A stretch of DNA of 64,000 nucleotides from a virus. Under the pieces are notes generated by a model. That model was not told the DNA's origin. It saw only the letters and a list, made by a program, of their open reading frames with translations, and did not search any database. The translations under genes were made by a program, and so were the position numbers. Positions 31,365-59,490 of the stretch are shown here, in pieces (position 1 is the first letter of the stretch; the number at the start of each line of letters is the position of its first letter). The stretch covers positions 47,584 to 111,583 of the IMG/VR virus record IMGVR_UViG_3300032246_001368; one strand, written 5' to 3'.

Positions 31365-31622
31365 ATGACAATAGAAGAAGAGAATCAATATTACAAAACA
31401 TTAATACAAGAAGTATCAGACGCTATGGACCGGAATGCTTTGATCTTGTATAAGTGGGAAAAGGTTGCGGAGAAATTAGTTAACCACTTAGAACCTTATC
31501 TTAAGTGGCCTGAGGATAAAGAAATGCTTGAAGTATATTCTACGCTTAAAGATTACCACTCTTTAAAGAATGAGATAAGAACAAATAAATCTAAAAGCTC
31601 GTTGACATATCCCGAAAAATAA
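31365..31622 (+). CDS. Hypothetical protein
   Basis: Leaderless-type promoter upstream. Confidence 0.55.
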   Translation: MTIEEENQYYKTLIQEVSDAMDRNALILYKWEKVAEKLVNHLEPYLKWPEDKEMLEVYSTLKDYHSLKNEIRTNKSKSSLTYPEK

Positions 31623-31630
31623 TATACTAT
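31602..31630 (+). promoter_or_regulatory. Sigma70-like promoter of ncRNA operon
   Basis: TTGACA-17 nt-TACTAT. Confidence 0.7.
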
Positions 31631-31642
31631 AAATAAATAAGA

Positions 31643-31656
31643 ATTGATCTTTGATA
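31643..31656 (+). promoter_or_regulatory. boxA-like antitermination site
   Basis: ATTGATCTTTGATA, identical to the 14-mer upstream of tmRNA; resembles rrn boxA (TG(C/A)TCTTT). Confidence 0.6.
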
Positions 31657-31672
31657 GTACATTTTAAAAATT

Positions 31673-31781
31673 TGACCGTTCGCAGGCTCGATCGAAAGAG
31701 CTACCGTACGTGTGCGTGACTAGGTTGCTCTGAAAGGCCTTCATCAACCGGTGCACAAGGATGGATTAACCACCCCGGTCA
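31673..31781 (+). ncRNA. Unidentified structured RNA, element 1
   Basis: Closing stem TGACCG/CGGTCA; inner stems GGCTC/GAGCT, GTGC/GCAC, GGTTG/CAACC; GC-rich island. Confidence 0.55.
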
Positions 31782-31790
31782 TAATAATTT

Positions 31791-31887
31791 GATTACTGCG
31801 TACAGTCCTCGGTAGTAGCAATACTAGTCCGAAGCCGCGGGTAAGGGCGAAAGCCTTAGACTTCCTAGCTCCGATAGGCCAGTAATC
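31791..31887 (+). ncRNA. Unidentified structured RNA, motif A copy 1
   Basis: GATTACTG/CAGTAATC closing stem, GCAA and GAAA tetraloop hairpins; homologue at 59234-59307. Confidence 0.7.
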
Positions 31888-31898
31888 ATTAAATTAAT

Positions 31899-32286
31899 AC
31901 TCTCTAGTTTTAGGAATTATTCTAGAGAGGGGTAAGGACGAGTTGCTTGTTGGTATGTTAGTAGTCCTTATTCAAGTTAGGGGAGCCAAAAACCTATGGT
32001 AAGCTTTGATCCTAGCATATTGATTAAACACAAGCTGGACGGTTAGTATAGGCTCCACGCCCGAACGTCGTTAAGGAAAGAACAAAATCCGGAATAAAAT
32101 CTTTCAATACCAATAATTTCTTTAGTAATGCTACCATCGCACGTCTCAAGTCGTGTATAAGTCGGGTCGGACCGTAAAAATGCAGAGAGAATAAAGAGAA
32201 AAAGCAGCGCCCTGTGTAGGTTGCAAACTACCGAATGAGTTGGAGTAACCCCTCCCACCATGTAGTCCTCGACGGAGGAGCAGGGA
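31899..32286 (+). ncRNA. Unidentified structured RNA(s), elements 3-4
   Basis: Stems CTCTCTAG/CTAGAGAG, TAAGGAC/GTCCTTA, GGAGCC/GGCTCC, GCACG/CGTGT, and CCCTG/CAGGG enclosing three hairpins; no credible ORF. Confidence 0.5.
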
Positions 32287-32331
32287 CATTTTCTTATTGA
32301 ATTTCCAACAACAACATAATATAATATATAC

Positions 32332-32730
32332 ATGATTAGCACCACAATACCTTACGAATACAATGACGGCGGATTTAAAGACTCAGGCATTCAGGATACT
32401 AACAATTGTACTATCGTAGCGTTTGCTATTGTTACGGGTATGGAATATAGTACAGCAGACCAAATTGGCGTTAAGACCAAGAGAGTTCGTCGTCGAGGCC
32501 ATTGGCCAGAGAAGATGGTGAACTATTCTAAAAGGGTATATGGTCTTAGATTTAGGAAGTTTAAATTTGCTTCTATAACCTTACAGAAGTTCCTTAAGAA
32601 GTATCCCACCGGAAGGTATTATGTTGCTAATAAGGATCATTGCTTTGCTATCATTGATGGTGTGGTTCAAGACCATGCTATGCTGGTCAGACCCTTCCAG
32701 ATTATCAAGAACGCCTGGCAGATAATTTAA
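32332..32730 (+). CDS. Conserved phage protein (papain/C39-like Cys-His-Asp)
   Basis: NNCTIVAFAI ... HCFAIIDGVVQD. Confidence 0.55.
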   Translation: MISTTIPYEYNDGGFKDSGIQDTNNCTIVAFAIVTGMEYSTADQIGVKTKRVRRRGHWPEKMVNYSKRVYGLRFRKFKFASITLQKFLKKYPTGRYYVANKDHCFAIIDGVVQDHAMLVRPFQIIKNAWQII

Positions 32731-47522: not shown

Positions 47523-47652
47523 AGCGACCGGTTGTTACCAAGCTCAAGATAACAACCGGTCGTAATAGCAACCAGGGGTAATACGATACCGACCGGTATT
47601 AAAGGACCCCGGACGTTCAAATTTGGTATATAGGGTAACGACCGGTCGGTAA
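47523..47652. repeat. Four GACCGGT-core sites arranged as two inverted pairs
   Basis: CGACCGGTTGTTA/TAACAACCGGTCG and TACCGACCGGT/ACCGGTCGGTA. Confidence 0.8.
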
Positions 47653-58760: not shown

Positions 58761-58774
58761 ATTGATCTTTGATA
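58761..58774 (+). promoter_or_regulatory. boxA-like site upstream of tmRNA
   Basis: ATTGATCTTTGATA, same as 31643-31656. Confidence 0.6.
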
Positions 58775-58783
58775 AATAATTTT

Positions 58784-59224
58784 GGGGGCGTACTGGCTTC
58801 GACTTATAATTGAAGTTTGTATTGCATGCAGTAGTTGATCTGTGGCTACTTTAAAACGGATTAAAAAACTAAATGCAAAAGTTATTACTAATGCAGTTAA
58901 GTCAGTCAAGTCATTCTTGACAAATGCTGCTGAGTCCATGTTCGCTTGCGAAGATGAGCTCTGCCTCATGGCTGCTTGACAATAAAAGAGGATCCTATTA
59001 AATCTTTTATTACATAATAGGTTAAGAAGTACTTGTGATTCTTAGGCAAATGAGAGCAAGGGGTGGTATGTGGTCCTTATTCACACATACAGGTAGGACT
59101 CTAAACATAGATAGGTTGGCGACACCTTGTTACCTTTAGTCAACGAAAGTACAAAGTCGTTCTAAGCATGTAGAAGTATAAATAGAACATTATAAACACA
59201 GGGGTTCGACTCCCCTCGCCTCCT
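58784..59224 (+). ncRNA. ssrA: tmRNA
   Basis: 5' GGGGGCGTACTGGCTTCGAC; 3' AGGGG-TTCGACT-CCCCT-CGCCTCC with G3:U pair; tag ORF 58875-58979 ending ...LMAA*. Confidence 0.9.
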
Positions 59225-59233
59225 CTTTACTTT

Positions 59234-59307
59234 GATTACTGCGTTTATCATCCGAGGTAATGCTCGGTCGCGGGTAACGATTCCAGTAAGCCGCCCGGCC
59301 AGTAATC
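59234..59307 (+). ncRNA. Unidentified structured RNA, motif A copy 2
   Basis: GATTACTGCGT ... CCGAG/CTCGG hairpin ... CGCGGGTAA ... TTCC ... GGCCAGTAATC shared with 31791-31887. Confidence 0.7.
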
Positions 59308-59490
59308 TTCAATTTAATAGAACTCGGTGTATCCCTCTCCAAGACTGTTCGAAAGGTCTTGTGATGGTTCTCGGGTCGTCGTAGGTCATAACAAAACTAG
59401 AACATAATTCTGGACGCTGAAGGTTTTTAGGACAAAAAGACTTACATATTTTTTAGTTGATTTATTATAACTTTTATATATTATAAATGG

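Follow-up and report, generated by a model that had tools for sequence, protein, structure and literature searches.

We analyzed a 64,000-nucleotide (nt) stretch of viral DNA, hereafter the window (positions 47,584 to 111,583 of IMG/VR record IMGVR_UViG_3300032246_001368), and the evidence supports the presence in it of a promoter-driven, non-coding, multi-module stable-RNA locus. The record is 111.6 kb long and ~52% complete, and the phage that it represents is an uncultured T4-like lake phage. The locus occupies a gap of ~680 nt, free of open reading frames (ORFs), that is bounded by the stop codon of an 85-amino acid (aa) gene at 31622 and, at 32332, by the start codon ATG of a 132-aa gene; behind one promoter and one boxA-like leader it comprises five domains, namely modules A, B and C, a divergent twister ribozyme, and module D. 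From sequence comparison we favor, with a probability of roughly 70%, the reading that the locus is a stable-RNA operon of the phage, organized in the manner of a tRNA operon, with a transcript that would be processed into separate RNAs. That A, B, C and D are themselves released as separate small RNAs has, as a claim of its own, somewhat better than even odds.

All features described here lie on the plus strand unless stated otherwise. Under genetic code 11, no ORF on this strand reaches 30 aa between 31623 and 32331, and recoding with TAG or TAA read as glutamine, or with code 4, gives no credible ORF across the locus; the claim of a first-pass annotation of this DNA that ~620 nt lack a credible ORF is thus borne out under four genetic codes. 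Transcription would begin at a sigma-70-type promoter, TTGACA-17-TACTAT (31602-31630; TTGACA at 31602-31607 and TACTAT at 31625-31630), which matches the consensus at 10 of 12 positions and is found at the equivalent place in relatives. The first-pass annotation had proposed the same promoter, and it is confirmed as the best-scoring site in the region. A T4-late-like element, TATAAATA (31628-31635), overlaps the -10 hexamer of this early-type promoter; among the related contigs (L numbers), the element is present in L002, L015 and L036 and absent from L003 and L008.

Starting 13 nt past the -10 hexamer is a boxA-like 14-mer, ATTGATCTTTGATA (31643-31656), which lies inside a conserved leader, AAGAAUUGAUCUUUGAUAGUACAUUUU. 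The first-pass annotation had reported the same 14-mer ahead of the gene for transfer-messenger RNA (tmRNA), and an exact second copy indeed lies at 58761, 10 nt ahead of the tmRNA (58784). The core GATCTTTRAYA occurs three times in the window, with 0.27 occurrences expected. Counting leader copies as GATCTTT(G/A)A(T/C)A across related loci, we obtained 30 distinct copies, 27 of which lie no more than 25 nt upstream of a tmRNA, a tRNA or an RNA module (8 precede a tmRNA; 13 precede module A, A' or G; 6 precede a tRNA gene), while the remaining three are within coding sequence and look like chance matches. The association of the leader with stable-RNA genes therefore stands, and supports the view that the leader is dedicated to such genes in this phage group. 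The antitermination leaders of rrn operons carry a boxA that has the form UGCUCUUUAACAA in E. coli. The phage element resembles it in having a U-rich CUUU(G/A)A core early in an untranslated stable-RNA transcript, and GAUCUUUAACA, a leader variant found in L004 and L019, comes close to the core of the E. coli boxA, a consensus that may not be that of the host. Unlike an rrn leader, the element is phage-encoded, and no boxB or boxC was identified. By this likeness, the leader could bind Nus.

Module C (31898-32104) is a ~207-nt RNA with two pseudoknots. The alignment of 14 distinct homologues (A2) gives five nested helices (H1, 31900-07/31922-29; H2, 31930-39/31964-73; H3a, 31976-81/32011-16; H4, 32038-46/32066-72; H5, 32077-81/32100-04) and the pseudoknots PK1 (31911-14/31993-96) and PK2 (31945-50/32030-35). 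In this alignment 94% of the cells are paired and 22 of the 51 pairs have changed on both sides, with slid controls at 51% or less. PK2 provides the clearest covariation (GCUUGU/ACAAGC, UCCGU/ACGGA, GUCUG/CAGAC and GCUCG/CGAGC), and module C also contains invariant G.U pairs (for example columns 144/178), which on the opposite strand would be A.C mismatches. These compensatory changes strongly support a real fold. For a candidate long-range pairing, GGAGCC/GGCUCC, there is no compensatory change, and two of its six pairs vary uncompensated in a few sequences. The H5 loop is a palindrome (UCCGGA, 32088-93) that stays self-complementary through its changes (UCCGGA, UCUAGA and ACUAGU; three variants only), which suggests the pairing of two module C copies better than it does a tetraloop. 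The module C pattern was found in 22 IMG/VR stretches; it is missing from the genomes of 185,579 bacterial and archaeal species (GTDB, one genome per species). A sequence within module C, UUUGAUCCUAGC, was considered as a lookalike of the 16S 5' end and dropped; its letters are unconserved among the homologues and pair in H3a.

Module A (31673-31781) is a 109-nt multi-helix RNA closed by the stem UGACCG/CGGUCA and found in nine IMG/VR stretches, with an optional extra hairpin in two relatives. Its alignment (A4, six homologues) is 99.5% paired with 10 compensatory pairs, and slid controls reach at most 45%; the pairing figure is flattered because the structure was drawn from the same six sequences that score it. 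The compensatory changes strongly support module A as a real fold.

The domain between modules C and D (32117-32199) belongs, we conclude from its conserved letters and paired changes, to the twister class as a genuine but divergent member. Twister is a self-cleaving ribozyme, reportedly described by Roth et al. in 2014. The class is reviewed in PMC6765202. Under permissive settings, RF03160 gave the only non-trivial Rfam match in the locus (32122-32194, model positions 1-68, 21.9 bits), and a homologue in L019 that retains P3 scores 40.7 bits (E 4.5e-8). The window element is of type P1 (P1 at 32117-24/32192-99) with a P5 insert and without P3, its minimum free energy fold forms P1, P2, P4 and P5, and cleavage is predicted between U32126 and A32127. 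As in other type-P1 twisters, P1, an internal loop, P2 and P4 follow in canonical order and the two pseudoknots can form; unlike the usual examples, the element sits within phage stable-RNA operons, just 3' of a tRNA, module C or other modules. A search pattern of three conserved blocks matched 13 IMG/VR and 24 metagenome stretches, which reduce to 17 distinct sequences, and none of the same 185,579 species genomes. P4, which lies outside the fixed pattern, occurs as CAC/GUG, CCG/CGG, UGG/CCA and AGG/CCU, so that all three pairs have changed on both sides. P1 also covaries across contigs (UUUCUUUA/UAAAGAAA, UUUUCAU/AUGAAAA and UUUUG/CAAAG, with UCUC/GAGA and CUG/CAG in two unrelated contigs), and the P3 and P5 arms are gained, lost and changed in sequence among the homologues.

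The twister keeps its conserved letters: the cleavage site has UAA, the P4 loop has CAAG, AAA stands ahead of the P2 3' strand, and GAG is present. From the capitals of the RF03160 consensus it departs only at four pseudoknot positions and in one U.U in P2. The P4 loop is GUCUCAAGUC in place of the consensus GUCCCAAGCC, the 3' internal loop is GAGAG in place of GAGGG, and the junction after P2 is AC in place of GC. With what we take to be the canonical T1 and T2 pairings of the twister fold, T1 becomes CUC/GAG for CCC/GGG (C to U together with G to A) and T2 becomes AC/GU for GC/GC (G to A together with C to U). L163 combines CUC with GGG, a U.G intermediate for T1. In an unrelated contig, L030 (Ga0310690_10020348), the variant twister, a canonical twister (GGUCCCAAGCCC, GAGGG) and a hammerhead-like element, CUGACGAG, lie within ~1 kb of each other; this trio resembles the ribozyme clusters that the literature describes.

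At gathering thresholds Rfam reports nothing within the locus, and modules A-D have no match among 4227 Rfam families (Rfam 15) at E values up to 10 with permissive filters; apart from twister-P1, the permissive scan returned three chance-level matches and nothing else. The Rfam scan was one of the checks proposed by the first-pass annotation, and a strong match covering the region is absent: there is a weak 73-nt twister match and none over the other ~550 nt. Another was covariation, and A, C and twister P4 do covary in related phage contigs. Of the four modules that the annotation had delimited, the first three keep their borders to within 1-2 nt (31673-31781, 31790-31888 and 31898-32104), and the fourth (32130-32286), drawn as a single unit, is really two, the twister and module D (32208-32287). 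Its view of a polycistronic stable-RNA transcript agrees with the separate folding units and with the tRNA genes that share the leader and the slot in relatives; its further statement that the RNAs can be assigned to no family fails, since the fourth module opens with a twister; one or more of the processing steps are therefore probably autocatalytic.

The arrangement of the locus in relatives indicates exchange of modules. The window array is A-B-C-tw-D (tw, twister). Behind the same promoter and leader, relatives carry A-B-C-tw-E, A-C-tw, A'-B-C-tw and A'-C-tw, or arrays led by a tRNA (tRNA-C-tw, tRNA-A-B-C-tw, tRNA-A'-tw-D-tRNA, tRNA-A'-C-tw-D-tRNA and tRNA-G-C-tw-E); others have A-B-C-tRNA-tw or G-tw-E, one lineage has A-C without a twister, and an F-tw array, which lacks the common promoter and leader, comes after a tmRNA and an ORF. 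The interchangeable module types thus number at least eight (A, A', B, C, D, E, F and G). In comparison with L006, the presence or absence of module B coincides exactly with a repeated AU-rich linker of ~10 nt; the modules are therefore cassettes that can be exchanged for tRNA genes. That tRNA genes stand in place of or between modules, behind the same leader and in the same slot, is what a polycistronic precursor resembling a tRNA operon predicts. The twister is placed after the final stable RNA of the block, and is followed by a terminator or by module D and more tRNAs. In the syntenic contig L002, the promoter, leader, twister and downstream gene are kept and all else is replaced; L002, L025 and L167 all retain the slot that separates the 85-aa gene from the 132-aa gene. 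In L025 (Ga0114963_10072323), a deletion has brought module A's 5' third up against the final ~60 nt of module C, with the twister kept, so the array decays as well as shuffles. Rfam group I intron matches were found in L003 (5756-5988, minus strand, 85.5 bits), where the match adjoins a tRNA gene upstream of the RNA operon, and in L007 (3301-3525, minus strand, 77.7 bits).

On present data, this RNA family is confined to uncultured phages, mostly from lake metagenomes. The locus has no blastn match in 50,697 phage GenBank records, and the 567-aa upstream protein, used as an anchor in IMG/VR, recovered no relatives. A literature search found no publication describing these RNAs, although one may exist. 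No members of the RtcB, Ro60/TROVE or RNA ligase families occur in the 111.6-kb record, a negative that says little because the record is only about half complete.

Module B is present in the window in two forms. The long form (31790-31888, 99 nt) starts ~9 nt after module A and has a closing helix of 9 base pairs, an arm capped by GCAA and a variable arm capped by GAAA; a second, short copy (59233-59308) begins 10 nt past the tmRNA. The closing helix and core are invariant (CUGCGU, CGCGGGUA, UUCC and GGCCAG), and an arm at one fixed site ranges from absent to ~60 nt. Another arm has long and short forms, between which P2 and P3 differ in a compensatory manner; the inner fold of the module is tentative because there are only seven sequences. 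A strict module B pattern recovered four IMG/VR contigs, all already known, and a loose one with 15 fixed bases gave 120 chance matches and no real ones. Assignment of module B to the hepatitis delta virus (HDV)-like or hatchet ribozymes was dropped, as the required upstream P1 strand is not conserved and there is no model match.

The tmRNA gene next to the second copy of module B also differs among relatives. In five related phages (L161, L162, L024, L026 and L038) it ends in GCCTCC plus an encoded ACCA. In the window (59217-59232), TCTTTACTT comes after the GCCTCC, and the short module B comes next; with TCTTTACTT in place of ACCA, the window tmRNA therefore has no encoded discriminator A and CCA end. 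After the second module B lies module F (59311-59440), spanning AGAACUCGGUG to GGACAAAAAGACUUACA. It recurs in L038, directly after the tmRNA, and in L026, L007, L020 and L035; in L026 it is directly ahead of a twister.

Module D (32208-32287) is an 80-nt RNA with the shape of a four-helix cloverleaf, closed by CCCUG/CAGGG (32210-14/32281-85). Five homologues each fold alone to the same four-helix shape with differing helix sequences, and all contain an invariant hairpin, CUCGACGGAG. IMG/VR yielded the module in four stretches, along with one further match due to chance, and a tRNA-Trp gene comes directly after it in three relatives. Its identity as a tRNA is ruled out: neither ARAGORN nor Rfam calls a tRNA or tmRNA at 32208-32287, and its loops, of 4-8 nt, have no T-loop motif. 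A hairpin with a UAACCC(C) loop recurs as a peripheral arm in module D of the window (32243-32258), in P3 of the L002 twister, in P5 of the L163 twister and in P3 of the L019 module D, with a stem sequence that differs from case to case; the hairpin could serve as a shared contact or as a motif that binds protein.

Taken together, these features suggest how the operon might work. The strong promoter and boxA-like leader would drive an untranslated transcript of ~650 nt, which would fold co-transcriptionally into five domains (A, B, C, twister and D), each with its own terminal helix. Most domains are spaced by AU-rich linkers of ~10 nt, with 8-12 nt on either side of the twister, and host endonucleases would probably cleave these linkers as they do tRNA spacers. 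The twister would cut itself between U32126 and A32127, giving module C a 3' end with a 2',3'-cyclic phosphate and a 22-nt tail, in which the C-twister linker (32105-32116) would remain, and leaving a twister-D RNA with a 5'-OH. An ACC(A) motif within the linker (32109-32112), ~10-15 nt ahead of the predicted cleavage site, is kept in most homologues. Modules A-D would then be small stable RNAs analogous to T4 species 1 and 2, with C as the conserved core and its loop palindrome suggesting pairing with a second copy. By analogy, the most likely role of the twister would be the RNase-independent formation of a 3' end for the preceding stable RNA. The comparison shows that the locus is non-coding, how A, C, the twister and D fold, that modules are exchanged and that the leader goes with stable-RNA genes; self-cleavage, Nus loading, linker cleavage, dimerization and all functions in trans we infer. 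A bolder interpretation, which we regard as doubtful, is that C, and possibly A, B and D, would constitute a new class of RNA-only machine, either a self-pairing double-pseudoknot particle freed by the twister or new ribozymes; T4-like lake phages would then have, next to their tRNAs and tmRNA, a set of eight or more reshuffled structured RNA cassettes with which to take over or protect host translation or RNA metabolism.

Several observations weigh against the operon reading or against parts of it. In single-sequence comparison with shuffles the folding energy is ordinary (z = -0.2 for the region and -0.06 to -1.6 for the modules) and does not single out the region, and therefore the case rests on comparison with relatives. 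For module B this comparison draws on seven sequences and for module D on five. There is no canonical terminator at the end of the locus in the window. The twister scores of 21.9 bits (window) and 40.7 bits (L019) are below the RF03160 gathering score of 67.2, in the window because both pseudoknots bear paired compensatory changes, and the window twister lacks P3 and has a P2 with one U.U mismatch. Most twister core columns are invariant through the construction of the search pattern; because the pattern fixes them, the pseudoknot argument consists of the comparison with the Rfam consensus, the canonical T1 and T2 pairing, and one intermediate. Lastly, the L160/L169 lineage has module C without a twister, and cleavage is therefore not obligatory.

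Instead of being cut into separate RNAs, the array could be one ornate RNA of ~600 nt, uncut and homo-oligomeric like GOLLD or ROOL, its 5' part variable and its 3' core conserved. GOLLD is conserved in its 3' region and less so in its 5' region, is found next to tRNA genes and can include tRNAs (PMC12286853), and the phage array has a similar layout: C is constant, the 5' modules vary, and a tRNA lies inside the L022 array. The loop palindrome of module C, self-complementary despite its changes, also fits an RNA that associates with itself. We nevertheless consider this improbable, given that the GOLLD and ROOL models have no match at gathering thresholds or at E values up to 10, that modules stand alone elsewhere (B after the tmRNA, A'-twister without C, and D behind other sequence in L158), that each module has its own closing helix with no covariation seen between modules, and that a self-cleaving ribozyme class sits within the array. 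Long odds attach to the idea that A, B and/or D are processing devices, either new self-cleaving ribozymes or RNase recognition structures, that release C, tmRNA and tRNAs. Their positions are suggestive (B lies 10 nt past the tmRNA and ~9 nt past A, and D immediately ahead of tRNA-Trp in three relatives), as are their invariant cores with freely varying peripheral arms and the tendency of self-cleaving ribozymes to cluster (PMC6765202). However, A, B and D match none of the hammerhead, hatchet, pistol, twister-sister, HDV-like and hairpin models at E values up to 10, most tmRNAs of the relatives are without a following B, and the locus would consist mostly of devices with C as the sole cargo.

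Two further explanations are very unlikely. A structured 5' leader, such as a riboswitch or attenuator, of the 132-aa gene at 32332 would be on the same strand, and the slot is conserved in L002, L025 and L167. This proposal is close to refuted by the gene's own promoter, TTGAAT-17-TATAAT (32297-32334), which marks the 3' limit of the RNA locus: the ATG lies 7 nt past its -10 hexamer, a layout shared with L002 and L167, and the mRNA of the 132-aa gene would therefore be leaderless. In L002 and L167 a strong terminator separates the array from that promoter, and the array is also found ahead of unrelated genes and tRNAs. We give practically no credence to a non-functional RNA, be it decayed coding sequence or the shadow of a minus-strand gene. 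The sole long frame is indeed a 100-aa minus-strand ORF with a GTG start (32043-32345), but it has no Pfam match, the twister and module D that it spans are wholly replaced by unrelated sequence in relatives, and substitutions are compensatory in helices rather than located at synonymous sites. The stable-RNA operon remains our preferred reading.

Extra stable RNAs of unclear role have been known in phage tRNA clusters for fifty years (T4 species 1 and 2, GOLLD and ROOL), and Miller et al. in 2003 are said to have placed species 1 and 2 (rnaC and rnaD) in the T4 tRNA cluster. Compared by description only, the modules resemble species 1 and 2 as small stable RNAs that would be co-transcribed with tRNAs in a phage of T4 type; against the two RNAs of T4, which has no ribozyme, stand at least eight module types here. 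With GOLLD and ROOL the array shares a phage-borne, tRNA-adjacent location, pseudoknots, a variable part joined to a conserved core, and loops that perhaps self-associate. It differs from them in that its conserved core measures only ~207 nt, its domains can be separated as cassettes, and a self-cleaving ribozyme class lies inside. A third parallel is provided by the theta ribozymes, minimal HDV-like ribozymes beside tRNA genes of gut phages, for which RNase-independent trimming of the 3' trailer has been proposed (PMC10879173). In both cases a small self-cleaving class is placed 3' of a phage stable RNA, and the L022 twister lies 15 nt past a tRNA. Unlike theta, the twister belongs to another ribozyme class, occurs in T4-like phages of lakes rather than in gut phages, usually follows an RNA other than a tRNA, and would by its predicted cut leave a tail of 9-22 nt instead of a mature end.

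The locus adds several compact, covariation-supported RNA families that are missing from Rfam and that are swapped with tRNA genes behind one leader. These modules are short enough for direct biochemistry and structural study. The twister subtype shows that the Rfam twister model misses sequences with co-evolved pseudoknots. To our knowledge, the functions of bacterial and phage twisters are still largely unexplained. The fixed position of the twister in the array, which parallels that of the HDV-like theta ribozymes of gut phages, would offer a concrete context for this class, namely the formation of the 3' ends of stable RNAs.

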